From the sequence record NC_052654.1: a DNA stretch of 64,000 nt; one strand, written 5' to 3'. The translations under genes were made by a program, and so were the position numbers. Of the stretch, positions 1,550-4,264 are shown in pieces. Position 1 is the stretch's first letter; every line of letters starts with the position of its first letter. Origin of the DNA: Escherichia phage vB_EcoM-Ro121c4YLVW. The notes under the pieces are model-generated. The model was given only the letters and a program-made list of their open reading frames with translations, searched no databases and was not told where the DNA came from.

Positions 1550-1616
1550 AATAAAATCCTCCTAAACTTTATCTTAACATATAAAAAATAATAAGTCAAG
1601 TTTTATTCAATAGATA

Positions 1617-1641
1617 GCAAAAAGCCTCCAATAAGGAGGCT
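1617..1641 (-). terminator. intrinsic terminator closing the tRNA operon (AGCCTCC-aataa-GGAGGCT hairpin + TTTTT on minus strand)
   Basis: Perfect 7-bp inverted repeat followed, on the minus strand, by a T-run; lies downstream of the last tRNA. Confidence 0.55.
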
Positions 1642-1756
1642 AGTAAATACTGTTAAGTTGAAATGCTTTATTATAATTGTGCGTTAATGAGTCGCACCCC
1701 TCCATCTTAGAAGGAACCAGGCAAGGTCTTCAAAGATACCGCTGGCAAGCGATATT

Positions 1757-1835
1757 TGGAGGCGGGAATCGGATTTGAACCGATGATCTCCAGCATATGA
1801 AACTGGCGAGGACGACCAGACTCCTCTATCCCGCT
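1757..1835 (-). tRNA. tRNA with anticodon CAU (Met or Ile2/lysidine)
   Basis: Hand fold: T-arm ATCGG-TTCAAAT-CCGAT, anticodon stem CCAGT/GCTGG, loop TTCATAT, CCA encoded; A1-C72 mismatch at acceptor end. Confidence 0.6.
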
Positions 1836-1841
1836 ATTATG

Positions 1842-1911
1842 TATCCCGTGCTGGATTCGAACCAGCATCACAATAAGCTGTGGAACTCTTATCCTGTAAG
1901 TCTAACGGGAA
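1842..1911 (-). tRNA. tRNA-like gene with non-canonical anticodon arm (4-bp stem CACA/TGTG with 6-nt loop); possible pseudo-tRNA
   Basis: Canonical T-arm GCTGG-TTCGAAT-CCAGC and 6-bp acceptor pairing, but no 5-bp stem / 7-nt loop anticodon arm can be drawn; about 70 nt. Confidence 0.35.
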
Positions 1912-1913
1912 AC

Positions 1914-1987
1914 TGGTTGTTTCGACAAGAATCGAACTTGTGTCTCACGATTATCAGTCGTGGGTTCTACCATTGAACTACGAAACA
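1914..1987 (-). tRNA. tRNA-Ile (anticodon GAU)
   Basis: Hand fold: acceptor TGTTTCG/CGAAACA, D-arm GTTC..GAAC, anticodon stem CACGA/TCGTG, loop CTGATAA, T-loop TTCGATT, CCA encoded. Confidence 0.7.
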
Positions 1988-1993
1988 TTTAAT

Positions 1994-2070
1994 TGGTCGG
2001 GACGGAGTGATTCGAACACTCGACCTCTCGCTCCCAAAGCGAGCGCACTACCAAGCTGTGCTACGTCCCG
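1994..2070 (-). tRNA. tRNA-Pro (anticodon UGG)
   Basis: Hand fold: acceptor CGGGACG/CGTCCCG, anticodon stem CTCGC/GCGAG, loop TTTGGGA, T-arm GAGTG-TTCGAAT-CACTC, CCA encoded. Confidence 0.7.
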
Positions 2071-2163
2071 TGATAACATTCTAAAGGTACACCGCAAAAG
2101 AAAGTGTTCGGCGGCTCCTCGTTTTTAACTTCACACTTAAGGTAGTGACTCACCTTTGTTATA

Positions 2164-2239
2164 TGGCTGGTCTGTCTGGATTTGAACCAAACCTACGACA
2201 GTCAAAGTGTCGTGTGCTACCGGACTACACTACAAACCA
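2164..2239 (-). tRNA. tRNA-Gln (anticodon UUG)
   Basis: Hand fold: acceptor TGGTTTG/CAGACCA, anticodon stem CGACA/TGTCG, loop CTTTGAC, T-loop TTCAAAT, CCA encoded, 76 nt. Confidence 0.65.
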
Positions 2240-2337
2240 ATAAATCATTTAATGAAGGGCAACCAGAAGAAGTGTGAGAGAAGGAGAAAACCATGAGTAA
2301 AAGAGAAAGTTTTCTGGCAACCCTTTATTAAATAATT

Positions 2338-2411
2338 TGGAGCGTTCTACGAGGATCGAACTCGTGCCGCCGACTTGGAAGGACGGAATGCTACCGCTAC
2401 ACCAAGAACGC
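2338..2411 (-). tRNA. tRNA-Gly (anticodon UCC)
   Basis: Hand fold: acceptor GCGTTCT/AGAACGC, T-arm ACGAG-TTCGATC-CTCGT, anticodon loop CTTCCAA (one T-T in stem), CCA encoded. Confidence 0.6.
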
Positions 2412-2422
2412 CATATATATTT

Positions 2423-2452
2423 ACTATACTACATTTTACTATTTGTTGTCAA
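2423..2452 (-). promoter_or_regulatory. sigma70-like promoter inside the tRNA cluster (TTGACA-N18-TATAGT on minus strand)
   Basis: Consensus -35 with near-consensus -10 read on minus strand, directly upstream of tRNA-Gly. Confidence 0.5.
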
Positions 2453-2725
2453 GACTTTTATTGATTGGGACAGTGACGAGTATCCCGTTGGGTGACTAGC
2501 CCTACGTTCGGTAAGCTAACTTAAAATAATACAAAACCAAAGTCAAATATTATTCTTCGTTGCTGTCGATGGGAGAGCCGCTTCTCATTTTGCCCCATCC
2601 AACCCTACTCCGGTCAAGTTTCGGGTGACTCTTTTTGTGATCAACACAATACTAAGAACACTGTCTTTCGAGCAGACCTTGTGCACAGGATACGACGATC
2701 AATCACAGTGCTCTTAATGTTGTGT
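2453..2725 (-). ncRNA. non-tRNA spacer inside tRNA operon; candidate stable small RNA(s)
   Basis: About 270 bp between tRNA-Thr and the internal promoter with no ORF and no T-loop motif; T4 carries non-tRNA stable RNAs in its tRNA region. Confidence 0.25.
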
Positions 2726-2800
2726 TGGTGCTCCCACACTGAATCGAACAGAGATCCACGGATTACAAAACCGTTGTAATAGCCATTATACTATAGGAGC
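2726..2800 (-). tRNA. tRNA-Thr (anticodon UGU)
   Basis: Hand fold: acceptor GCTCCTA/TGGGAGC (one G-U), anticodon stem ACGGT/TCCGT, loop TTTGTAA, T-loop TTCGATT, CCA encoded. Confidence 0.6.
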
Positions 2801-2806
2801 AATGCT

Positions 2807-2884
2807 GGGACTCGGCAGGATTCGATACCTGCAATTCCAGAAGCCTATTGGCGACTGGGGGGTTTACCTTAACTCTACAAGTCC
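2807..2884 (-). tRNA. tRNA-like gene with aberrant D/anticodon region (anticodon not assignable)
   Basis: Good acceptor pairing GGACTTG/CGAGTCC and T-arm GCAGG..CCTGC (8-nt loop TATCGAAT), but the central region (CCCCCC run) does not give a canonical anticodon arm; no CCA encoded. Confidence 0.3.
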
Positions 2885-2891
2885 ATAATTC

Positions 2892-2977
2892 TGGCGATGA
2901 GTATAGGATTCGAACCTATATTGTTCTTTCGAACACGGATTAACAGTCCGCCGCTTAAACCATTCAGCCAACTCATC
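2892..2977 (-). tRNA. type II (long variable arm) tRNA with anticodon GUU (Asn-decoding anticodon on a Tyr-like body)
   Basis: Hand fold: acceptor GATGAGT/ACTCATC, anticodon stem GCGGA/TCCGT, loop CTGTTAA, variable-arm hairpin GTTC-GAAA-GAAC, T-arm ATAGG-TTCGAAT-CCTAT, CCA encoded. Confidence 0.5.
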
Positions 2978-2983
2978 TTAATT

Positions 2984-3071
2984 TGGTGGTGAGTGATGGA
3001 GTCGAACCACCCGAATCGCAATGATAACAGATTTACAGTCTGCCCCGCTACCCCTACGGAATTAACTCACC
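2984..3071 (-). tRNA. tRNA-Tyr (anticodon GUA), type II
   Basis: Hand fold: acceptor GGTGAGT/ACTCACC, anticodon stem GCAGA/TCTGT, loop CTGTAAA, long variable arm, T-loop TTCGACT, CCA encoded. Confidence 0.6.
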
Positions 3072-3201
3072 TAAATACTAATATTTAAATTCTTTTTAAA
3101 ATAGCCAGTGTTCACACCACTAACTATGAGGTATCGGTAAAGTGGTTACCGCCACTTGCCGAAGATTTACTCTGCTAAAGTAAGCTACATTAAAAAGAAC
3201 T

Positions 3202-3287
3202 TGGCGGTAGATGTAGGACTCGAACCTACACGCCGTTTCCGACTACAGTTTAGCAAACTGTCGTGGCTACCATTTCACCAATCTACC
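3202..3287 (-). tRNA. tRNA-Ser (anticodon GCU), type II
   Basis: Hand fold: acceptor GGTAGAT/ATCTACC, anticodon stem ACAGT/ACTGT, loop TTGCTAA, long variable arm, T-arm TGTAGG-TTCGAGT-CCTACA, CCA encoded. Confidence 0.65.
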
Positions 3288-3292
3288 TAATC

Positions 3293-3383
3293 TGGCGGAA
3301 GGAGGGAGAGTCGAACTCCCAAGGCTCTTTCAAGCTCGGCGGTTTTCAAGACCGTTTTCGTCGCCACATCGATTTGCCCTTCC
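3293..3383 (-). tRNA. tRNA-Ser (anticodon UGA), type II
   Basis: Hand fold: acceptor GGAAGGG/TCCTTCC, anticodon stem CGGT/ACCG, loop CTTGAAA, long variable arm, T-arm GGGAG-TTCGACT-CTCCC, CCA encoded. Confidence 0.6.
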
Positions 3384-3617
3384 ATACTTATAATCTAACA
3401 TAAAATAATGTTTGTTGTCAATAGTTTTTTAAAACATTTTACCATGAATGGTGACTCCACCAACCCCCGTTCTCCACGAACGGTGCTCTTCGAGCATTTA
3501 TGTCTTCTAATATAACCGTGGCCTTTGTTTATAATGTCTGACATACTTGCCTCATTCTCTGCCACCATGATCAGTAGTGGGTTCAAATCACTTGAGCTAA
3601 TTCATGTTAAAATGTTC

Positions 3618-3692
3618 TGGTGTCTTTACAAGGAATCGAACCTTGACTAAGAGTTTAGAAGACTCCTGTGCTATCCATTACACCATAAAGAC
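3618..3692 (-). tRNA. tRNA-Arg (anticodon UCU)
   Basis: Hand fold: acceptor GTCTTTA/TAAAGAC, anticodon stem GGAGT/ACTCT, loop CTTCTAA, T-arm CAAGG-TTCGATT-CCTTG, CCA encoded. Confidence 0.7.
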
Positions 3693-3694
3693 TT

Positions 3695-3769
3695 TGGTGG
3701 CCCTGGCTGGTTTCGATCCAGCTACCTATCGGTTATGAGCCGACAGCTCTCCCATTGAGCTACAGGGCC
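3695..3769 (-). tRNA. tRNA with anticodon CAU (Met elongator or Ile2)
   Basis: Hand fold: acceptor GGCCCTG/CAGGGCC, D-arm GCTC-AATGGGAGA-GC, anticodon loop CTCATAA, T-arm GCTGG-ATCGAAA-CCAGC, CCA encoded. Confidence 0.65.
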
Positions 3770-4015
3770 ATAAATGTGGTAACAGAGACGCTGACGATTG
3801 TAGAGAACCGCTACATTCTCTAAGACCAAGCCCAACTTTCAGCGTAAAAGTTCTTGAGCCGAGACTATTCCTTTTCCTCTTTGGTAGCTAACCTCTGAAG
3901 AAGTAGTCTCTAACACTACCGCAGTGCAAGCCCCTCTTAACAAAAGTCAACGACCCTGTTACCACACTTGATGAACGTATCCTAACATATGAAGGATACG
4001 TTTGTCAATAGTTAT

Positions 4016-4264
4016 TTAAGCATATTCTGCTACTTCTTCACTATCTTTCTTTTCCAGAAGAGCAACAACCAAAGCTTCTGCGTTAAAAGTGTTAATTTCA
4101 AGATCCATCTCTCGCATCAGAGCCAAGAAATCAATAACTTTAACATCTTTAGTGATTACAATAGAAGTTGTACCATTGTTTTCAGATGTGTATTTTTCTG
4201 GATGGAAAAGAAAAACTGCATTGCCGTTACCATCTTCAAACACGTGTTTTTCTAATAGAGACAT
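4016..4264 (-). CDS. hypothetical protein
   Basis: ORF track, start moved to internal Met (MSLLEKH) preceded by AGGAGG. Confidence 0.45.
   Translation of the reverse strand: MSLLEKHVFEDGNGNAVFLFHPEKYTSENNGTTSIVITKDVKVIDFLALMREMDLEINTFNAEALVVALLEKKDSEEVAEYA

Follow-up and report, generated by a model that had tools for sequence, protein, structure and literature searches.

A candidate two-module structured RNA between tRNA-Thr and tRNA-Gly in the tRNA cluster of phAPEC8-like phages

Non-tRNA RNAs that arise from tRNA clusters are a known category. In E. coli, the 3' external transcribed spacer (3'ETS) of leuZ is a tRNA precursor spacer that acts as a sponge for small RNAs (sRNAs); such spacers are short and base-pair with known sRNAs. 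The tRNA cluster of phage T4 contains two non-tRNA RNAs on the same strand, rnaC and rnaD (the stable RNAs species 1 and species 2), and rnaD starts one base after tRNA-Arg (T4 record). The structured non-coding RNAs GOLLD and ROOL, which occur in phages and prophages, are often encoded beside tRNA islands, contain a variable linker, and form homo-oligomers via self-interacting kissing loops (PMC12286853). Here, we describe a segment of the tRNA cluster of Escherichia phage vB_EcoM-Ro121c4YLVW, namely positions 2453-2725 of a 64,000-nt stretch of the record NC_052654.1 (hereafter, the window). An initial annotation of the sequence had proposed that this segment, located between tRNA-Thr and the promoter of tRNA-Gly and devoid of tRNAs and open reading frames (ORFs), encodes a stable small RNA. 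Its position and content were confirmed with ARAGORN, Rfam, and an ORF check. Sequence comparisons indicate that the segment consists of two conserved, folded modules of non-coding RNA, a hairpin (HP1) and a multi-helix RNA (B-C RNA), which match no described family and would be new within the known category.

The tRNA region (1600-4100) is 100% identical to that of Escherichia phage ESCO13 (Phapecoctavirus, Stephanstirmvirinae; phAPEC8-like) and 95-99.9% identical to those of dozens of phAPEC8-like phages. The tRNA genes of the cluster extend from 3769 to 1757, and all of them are encoded by the minus strand (ARAGORN, Rfam). A consensus scan revealed three sigma-70-type promoters on this strand, at 4008-3979, 3421-3392, and 2452-2423. 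The segment had been thought to lie just downstream of the last of these promoters, but on the transcribed minus strand it is located directly upstream of it, and it is instead downstream of the promoter at 3421-3392. One terminator-like site was found in the cluster outside of the tRNA genes, at 1641-1623, and no terminator was detected on the minus strand between 3392 and 2453. Because no terminator separates the promoter at 3421-3392 from the segment, the latter should be co-transcribed with the genes from tRNA-Ser to tRNA-Thr. The features of the segment and its borders are compiled in Table 1.

Table 1. Features of the segment and of the genes that border it, in window coordinates
Feature	Coordinates	Strand	Description and basis
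tRNA-Thr (UGU), encoded CCA	2726..2800	-	ARAGORN; Rfam tRNA, 55.6 bits; 3' end abuts HP1
HP1, 82-nt hairpin	2644..2725	-	6-bp plus 14-bp lower stem, 6x3 internal loop, irregular upper stem, 7-nt loop
HP1 core GAUUGAUCGUCGU(A)UCCUG-NGCN-CAAGGUCUGCUCGAA(A)G	2665..2704	-	blastn, pattern scan, variant list
HP1 apical hexamer GUGCAC	2681..2686	-	columns 44/47 are U/A, G/C, or C/G; complementary in 10/10 variants
Linker from HP1 to B-C RNA, A-rich	2623..2643	-	sequence not conserved outside Phapecoctavirus (alignments)
B-C RNA 5' domain (GAAAC, P1, AGUAG, P2, P3)	2565..2622	-	covariance model R1, covariation
P4, variable hairpin	2514..2564	-	unalignable between subgroups; closed hairpin in every lineage read, by inspection
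B-C RNA 3' domain (single-stranded CCGAACGUAG, P5, P6)	2467..2513	-	covariation, 13 variants
Internal sigma-70-type promoter TTGACA-N18-TATAGT, serves tRNA-Gly and downstream tRNAs	2423..2452	-	consensus scan, 11/12; kept in relatives
tRNA-Gly (UCC)	2338..2411	-	ARAGORN and Rfam

The longest ORF of the segment has a GTG start and comprises 33 amino acids. No ORF is conserved in five relatives, and because the ORFs shift in frame, length (22-72 amino acids), and start codon, the segment does not contain a protein gene. Coding sequences of hypothetical proteins have been annotated over HP1 or the B-C RNA on either strand (locus L265, 1689-2007; EP57 and WPEC records), which are probably spurious, as the ORFs are not conserved. 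A comparison with Rfam, which had been suggested initially, assigned the segment to no described RNA family: in the scan of 1600-4100, there was no match inside 2412-2725, neither at the gathering score nor at a permissive E value of up to 10. The latter threshold also yielded no match to self-cleaving ribozymes (HDV-like, hammerhead, twister, pistol, hatchet). ARAGORN called nothing between tRNA-Thr and tRNA-Gly, and neither this program nor the covariance search (E up to 10) detected a tRNA cloverleaf (RF00005), not even a divergent one, in 2412-2725. The segment is more than random filler: HP1 and most of the remaining sequence are near-identical in about 70 phage records, whereas about 55 nt in its interior are too divergent to be aligned across subgroups.

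The CCA of tRNA-Thr ends at 2726, and HP1 begins at the adjacent base, 2725. The predicted free energy of its fold is -30.3 kcal/mol, with z scores of -3.7 for the minus strand and -1.9 for the plus strand. Within Phapecoctavirus, HP1 is essentially invariant, with single substitutions in two records; in an alignment of six Phapecoctavirus-type sequences, a C/T difference in phage nieznany is the only change. The 40-nt core of HP1 (GAUUGAUCGUCGU...GUCUGCUCGAA) was also found, using blastn and pattern scans, in lambdoid prophages of Klebsiella and E. coli, the Klebsiella siphophage SCNJ1-C, a Sashavirus, and the E. coli phages PJ16, Bas77, and Bas81. For ten distinct variants, 97% of the cells at paired positions were indeed paired, compared to 86.8% in shuffles and 33-44% with slid partners, and seven pairs had changed on both sides. 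The 6x3 internal loop is conserved as GAUUGA / AAG. When the minus strand is read, G·U accounts for about 13% of the paired cells; for example, columns 37-56 form U·G in all ten variants and columns 21-68 do so in seven of them. Because these pairs would be A·C on the other strand, the functional form should be the minus-strand RNA, and not a DNA cruciform.

The apical hexamer is GUGCAC in ESCO13, GGGCCC or GCGCGC in lambdoid phages, and GCGCGC in Sasha-like and Bas phages. Columns 43-48 are thus self-complementary in every variant (10/10), as expected when the palindrome of a kissing loop is maintained. On the sequence level, the apex fits a loop-loop (kissing) homodimer similar to the self-interacting loops of GOLLD, and it fits equally well an inverted repeat that runs through its own center. 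With only three sequence types, the pattern is suggestive rather than decisive. The invariant internal loop and the palindromic apex suggest the binding of a conserved partner, self-pairing, or both.

The second module, the B-C RNA, has a different architecture. The order of its elements across the homologues was assigned by inspection, and a covariance model, R1, was built from four compact members. R1 yielded 22 matches in all, including a single one in the window (2563-2631, minus strand, 31.9 bits, E 4e-5); the T4 region, the lambdoid loci, and unrelated control loci gave none. Two copies with large inserts, at loci L266 and L294, were missed by R1 and were recognized by eye. In the 5' domain, P1 consists of 2 bp with UGAC in the loop, P2 consists of 9 bp (GUUGGAUGGG / CCCAUCGAC) with a conserved G-G mismatch that is sometimes followed by an insert, and P3 is formed by GAG / CUC with the hexaloop AAGCGG (5-6 bp and RANCGG across homologues). 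In the 3' domain, the single strand preceding P5 has the consensus CCGRACGUAG. P5 pairs GGG with CCC around the 7-nt loop CUAGUCA (3-4 bp and YUWGUCA across homologues), and P6 pairs GGGA with UCCC around the 12-nt loop UACUCGUCACUG (GRGA / UCYC and UAYYCGUCACUG across homologues).

In the 5' domain, 88.7% of the cells were paired, compared to 66% in shuffles and 32-55% with slid partners, in an alignment that consists of related sequences and favors structure because it was fitted to R1. Changes on both sides were found for 12 of the 16 pairs, and none of 500 shuffles reached the observed covariation score. Depending on the lineage, P2 reads GGAUUGG / CCAAUC, GUCAGG / CCUGAU, or GACAAGA / UCUUGUC. 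For the 3' domain, 13 variants were aligned with MAFFT alone, and 96.7% of the cells were paired (87% in shuffles, 25-63% with slid partners), with three of eight pairs changed on both sides. Helices P2, P3, P5, and P6 are, therefore, supported by covariation, and their loops are invariant. Taken together with HP1, six minus-strand helices are kept via compensatory changes, in relatives as well as in unrelated phages, in a segment that lacks both a conserved ORF and a divergent tRNA fold. This strengthens the initial proposal of a non-tRNA RNA candidate within the tRNA operon.

Additional pairings were considered for the B-C RNA. A long-range pairing of GGAUGGGG with UGUCCCAAUC, taken from a single-sequence fold, was ruled out, because phage phiWec179 compensates the local P2 instead. 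A closing helix P0 between the leader following the CCA and the sequence after P6 would be possible in Citrobacter phage Tr1 and Klebsiella phage KP13-26, but, judged by eye, is not kept in Phapecoctavirus. In a proposed loop-E closure of GG-AGUA-GG with CC-GAA-C, GAA is replaced by GGA in two lineages.

The two modules do not have the same phylogenetic distribution, which is why we treat the segment as bipartite. The alignment of the six Phapecoctavirus-type sequences is a mosaic of HP1 (82 nt), a near-identical block of about 85 nt, about 55 nt that are unalignable, a second near-identical block of about 46 nt, and the promoter. In distant Stephanstirmvirinae (Klebsiella phages phi1_175008 and KP13-26, Citrobacter phage Tr1), the second and fourth of these blocks are kept and the first is absent. 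Pattern scans of viral and metagenome collections and blastn searches revealed about 15 distinct homologues of the B-C RNA. All homologues that could be placed belong to phages or contigs of about 140-155 kb, and there was no match to the B-C RNA in 5,426 E. coli genomes. A separate scan of genome contigs with the pattern GATCGTCGN{6,20}TCTGCTCG was too loose and returned chance matches. Throughout the Stephanstirmvirinae and their metagenomic relatives, the B-C RNA follows a tRNA, either directly at the CCA or past one hairpin. It is placed directly after tRNA-Thr in most lineages (including Tr1, KP13-26, L272, and L274), directly after tRNA-Ser(GCU) at loci L279, L288, and L296, after HP1 in Phapecoctavirus, and after another hairpin at loci L266, L278, and L289.

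Two forms of mimicry were rejected. Mimicry of the tRNA-Thr anticodon by the P5 loop YUWGUCA is at variance with the occurrence of the same loop after tRNA-Ser(GCU) at loci L279 and L288 and with a C at position 37. Mimicry of a host sequence is at variance with the lack of B-C matches in E. coli genomes; HP1 matched 11 genomes only, and the two matches that were inspected sit among phage genes. The searches also showed that three phages with other host names, Campylobacter phage B15, Pseudomonas phage PsgM04F, and Acinetobacter phage ABPW7 (MG065650, OR584014, OP562383), look like Phapecoctavirus. B15 is 99.8% identical over the 2.5-kb tRNA region, and ABPW7 and PsgM04F are 95.5% and 82.4% identical, respectively, over a 314-nt segment. 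Incorrect host labels or contamination might account for this.

With moderate confidence, we interpret the segment as a structured non-coding RNA of the minus strand that is part of a tRNA precursor and is released by the tRNA-processing enzymes of the host. Transcription would start at the promoter at 3421-3392 and include the segment in the precursor of tRNA-Ser to tRNA-Thr. Cleavage or trimming at the 3' CCA of tRNA-Thr would create the 5' end of the element, and its 3' limit might be set either by protection through the P6 hairpin or by an RNase P cut at the 5' end of tRNA-Gly. HP1 would form a rod-like hairpin that might pair with a second copy through its apex, resulting in a kissing-loop dimer. 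In the B-C RNA, predicted to be a multi-helix RNA of about 155 nt, the loops RANCGG, YUWGUCA, and UAYYCGUCACUG as well as the single strands GAAAC, AGUAG, and CCGRACGUAG are probably the sites at which a factor of the host or the phage makes contact. The released RNAs would be stable and would act in trans through their invariant loops. Selection appears to act on the RNA itself, because HP1 and the conserved blocks B and C of the B-C RNA are near-invariant, while P4 is unalignable and the following gene varies. In addition, the HP1 core is common to lytic myoviruses, lambdoid prophages, and siphophages, which points to a conserved host target.

Several observations weigh against the interpretation as a released, trans-acting RNA. 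Taken by itself, the B-C part does not have an exceptional fold energy (z -0.96), so that covariation has to carry the structure of this module. However, the homologues represent few and related lineages, and kinship alone can exceed shuffles without any structure. P1 has 2 bp only, and the bases of the proposed loop-E closure and of a UGAC/GUCA contact are invariant. The palindromic apex of HP1 occurs as three sequence types only, which represent about two independent changes. A transcriptome paper on these phages was not found in the literature. Lastly, all long spacers of the cluster are also strongly structured, which in part favors the view that the segment is solely a processing spacer.

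Under this latter explanation, which is possible but doubtful, the hairpins would guide cleavage by RNase III or RNase E and keep the tRNAs from misfolding, and would then be degraded without having any function in trans. Apart from the one at 3072-3201, the other spacers of the cluster had been described as short, but the cluster contains spacers of 196 nt (3617-3422), 130 nt (3201-3072), 98 nt (2337-2240), and 93 nt (2163-2071) as well as a leader of 209 nt (3978-3770). Each long spacer forms a domain that is closed by a long terminal stem, with z scores for the minus strand of -5.5 (leader, 3770-3978), -4.9 (3422-3617), -5.3 (2240-2337), and -3.6 (3072-3201). The last of these, which had been mentioned initially as a second unexplained spacer, has its own conserved fold: a 17-bp closing stem and three inner hairpins are conserved in five relatives, and five pairs have changed on both sides. 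It is probably another structured RNA. In addition, the lower stem of HP1 is a near-perfect helix of about 20 bp and thereby matches RNase III substrates in size. However, processing signals would not need an identical 40-nt core across unrelated phage families, nor would processing need invariant loops of 6 to 12 nt in the B-C RNAs of E. coli, Klebsiella, and Citrobacter phages and of metagenomes. Moreover, HP1 is present without a directly adjoining tRNA at loci L004 and L260. The structured state of all spacers equally suggests that the cluster encodes several non-tRNA RNAs.

An unlikely alternative is that the B-C RNA serves the downstream gene in cis, either as a regulatory leader or as a promoter-upstream element. 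In Phapecoctavirus, 14 nt separate the end of block C from the -35 hexamer downstream of it, and in Tr1, L274, L290, and L279 the B-C RNA is followed, after 15-25 nt, by a ribosome-binding site and an ORF. However, the downstream partner differs by lineage while the RNA stays conserved: it is a promoter and tRNA-Gly in Phapecoctavirus and the Klebsiella phages, an ORF of 108 amino acids in Tr1, L274, and L290, and an unrelated ORF of 64 amino acids in L279. No homologue of the 108-amino-acid ORF exists in ESCO13, and the covariation of the B-C RNA is found in RNA helices and not in repeats that resemble DNA-binding sites. The 108-amino-acid ORF contains HCSCYGLEDQWEPE and is itself conserved directly after the B-C RNA (L267, 2572-2898, in Tr1; L274 and L290 in metagenomes).

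It is quite unlikely that HP1 acts as DNA, i.e., as a small mobile palindromic element or as an inverted repeat that is bound by a protein. Its presence in unrelated phages suggests horizontal spread, and an inverted repeat through its own center has a palindromic center, so that GUGCAC, GGGCCC, and GCGCGC would result without any RNA-RNA contact. However, the G·U asymmetry described above would not be expected for a cruciform or a double-stranded DNA site, and the conserved internal loop is asymmetric. Furthermore, HP1 is situated in a non-coding island in the inspected loci, and wherever tRNA genes are nearby, its orientation is always the same as theirs. A decayed tRNA, transfer-messenger RNA (tmRNA), or small-protein gene is highly improbable, although siphophage islands with HP1 contain a tmRNA-like tag template, the 3' strand of HP1 in one prophage doubles as the acceptor strand of a 115-nt pseudo-tRNA, and hypothetical proteins are annotated over the segment in some records, because tRNA and tmRNA matches are lacking even at E values of up to 10, ARAGORN is negative, the ORFs are not conserved, and near-invariance with compensatory changes implies selection and not decay.

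The HP1 loci of other phages revealed additional features. In SCNJ1-C, the Sashavirus, and Bas81, HP1 belongs to an island with its own promoter, and Bas77 shares this layout. The first segment of the islands matches the tag-coding part of tmRNA models. The match scores 26.7 bits, with E 1e-6 when 436 nt are searched, and falls short of the gathering score (84). No tmRNA was called in the islands by ARAGORN, and the Rfam matches stayed below the gathering score. The segment reads AUAAAU-GCA-AAC-...-GCG-GCG-UAA and would encode ...LMAA and a stop. The template is located downstream of the island's own promoter (L003, 2816-2971; L005, 2817-2960; L299, about 1330-1425), and the tag peptides would be (A)ANEDRFLMAA-stop in SCNJ1-C and ANDDVVLMAA-stop in Bas81. 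It is followed by two or three hairpins that have a lower-stem "frame" ACACAAC...GUUGUG in common and differ in their apical sequences. Hairpins of this family, with the lower stem ACACAAC..UAAGAGCA / UGCUCUU..GUUGUG, were found at L263 (1614-1700), L299 (1663-1750 and 1865-1980), L005 (3160-3250), and L261 (2245-2330). One apical cargo is common to the Phapecoctavirus phages phiWec188 and SF1-1, right after tRNA-Thr, and to the siphophage Bas81, and the stem changes are compensatory. Judged from these sequences, HP1 looks like one exchangeable cassette among several. At the prophage locus L261, RefSeq lists a pseudogenic tRNA-Gly of 115 nt (2566-2680). The sequence GTTGTGG provides the 5' acceptor strand of this tRNA and also the 3' strand of HP1. 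Because one strand serves both, the two folds would compete.

A tentative and rather unlikely extension of the interpretation as a released RNA is that unrelated enterobacterial phages share such exchangeable cassette hairpins. HP1 would then be a self-kissing module for dimerization or assembly, a small-scale counterpart of ROOL and GOLLD, and the B-C RNA would be a new, tRNA-linked class of phage RNAs that captures a host factor of translation or RNA processing.

The analysis of the cluster also revealed two tRNA genes that were missed by ARAGORN, both on the minus strand. One is located at 3297-3383 (35.7 bits with the tRNA-Sec model) and is a tRNA-Ser in the annotation of relatives; the other is located at 2987-3071 (39 bits with the tRNA model) and is annotated as tRNA-Tyr in relatives. 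Two short minus-strand spacers, 2801-2891 and 1836-1913, have an acceptor-like stem and a T-arm-like sequence (GGTATCGAATCC, GGTTCGAATCC). Neither ARAGORN nor Rfam (E up to 10) called them as tRNAs, and they might represent aberrant RNAs that resemble tRNAs. A weak match to the RyhB model (25.1 bits, E 0.097; gathering score, 55) covers the terminator region at 1616-1670 on the minus strand, where the tRNA cluster ends, and probably reflects terminator similarity only.

The HP1 and B-C modules provide two candidate RNA families for covariance-model libraries, and false coding sequence calls could be removed. This is of relevance because phAPEC8-like phages are widely isolated and are therapeutic candidates, and the region is either left blank in their genomes or filled with spurious "hypothetical proteins". 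A literature search for the HP1 and B-C element returned nothing. With E. coli as the host and a culturable phage, the system is testable.

Lastly, the element was compared with known systems. The motifs CCGAA-GUAG, UUGAC, and CUAGUC of the B-C RNA recall the stems of Y RNAs, and in the Klebsiella Stephanstirmvirinae, a gene for a "Ro-like" vWA protein (DUF7788/DUF2828) is located immediately upstream of the tRNA cluster (L266, 1-591; L276, 1-189). Rfam yielded no Y_RNA or YrlA match in the segment, and the only YrlA match (21.7 bits) is located on the tRNA genes at 1964-2025. A tblastn search across the whole ESCO13 genome did not detect a Ro-like gene; therefore, a pairing of a Y RNA with Ro does not explain the ESCO13 element, and this candidate was dropped. 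The element also differs from tmRNA, because the window lacks any tmRNA-like match and the siphophage islands have only partial matches below the threshold, upstream of HP1 (L003, L005). Like the 3'ETS of leuZ, it would be a by-product of tRNA operon processing that is functional in itself; for the ESCO13 element, complementarity to a target was not identified.

The dimerization initiation site of HIV-1 has the hexamers GUGCAC and GCGCGC. HP1 variants carry both of them, as a 6-nt palindrome followed by an A, and the palindromic character is kept by covarying changes. In contrast to HIV-1, the HP1 loop has 7 nt and not 9, and the 5' flanking purines are lacking; the resemblance does not imply relatedness.

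The parallel to the stable RNAs of T4, which had been drawn in the initial annotation, holds as an analogy of position: like rnaC and rnaD, the ESCO13 element is part of a tRNA cluster, is encoded on the same strand, and abuts the 3' end of a tRNA. In contrast, the ESCO13 element has neither a T-arm, which is present in rnaC, nor a terminal CCA, which is present in rnaD. Homology was ruled out, as a search of the T4 region that comprises the tRNA genes, rnaC, and rnaD (L277) with R1 gave no match (E up to 1), and Smith-Waterman alignments with rnaC and rnaD resulted in z scores of -1.4 to 1.0. Models of GOLLD (RF01998) and ROOL (RF03087) did not match the window at the gathering score, nor 1600-4100 at E up to 10. 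The element is similar to these RNAs in that it is phage-encoded, lies beside tRNA genes, and includes a variable stretch. However, it is much smaller (about 270 nt versus about 580 to more than 800 nt), and its oligomerization is proposed from one palindromic loop. The candidate RNAs described here would add a large group of enterobacterial phages to those that have non-tRNA RNAs in their tRNA clusters, a phenomenon so far exemplified by the RNAs of T4, GOLLD, and ROOL.

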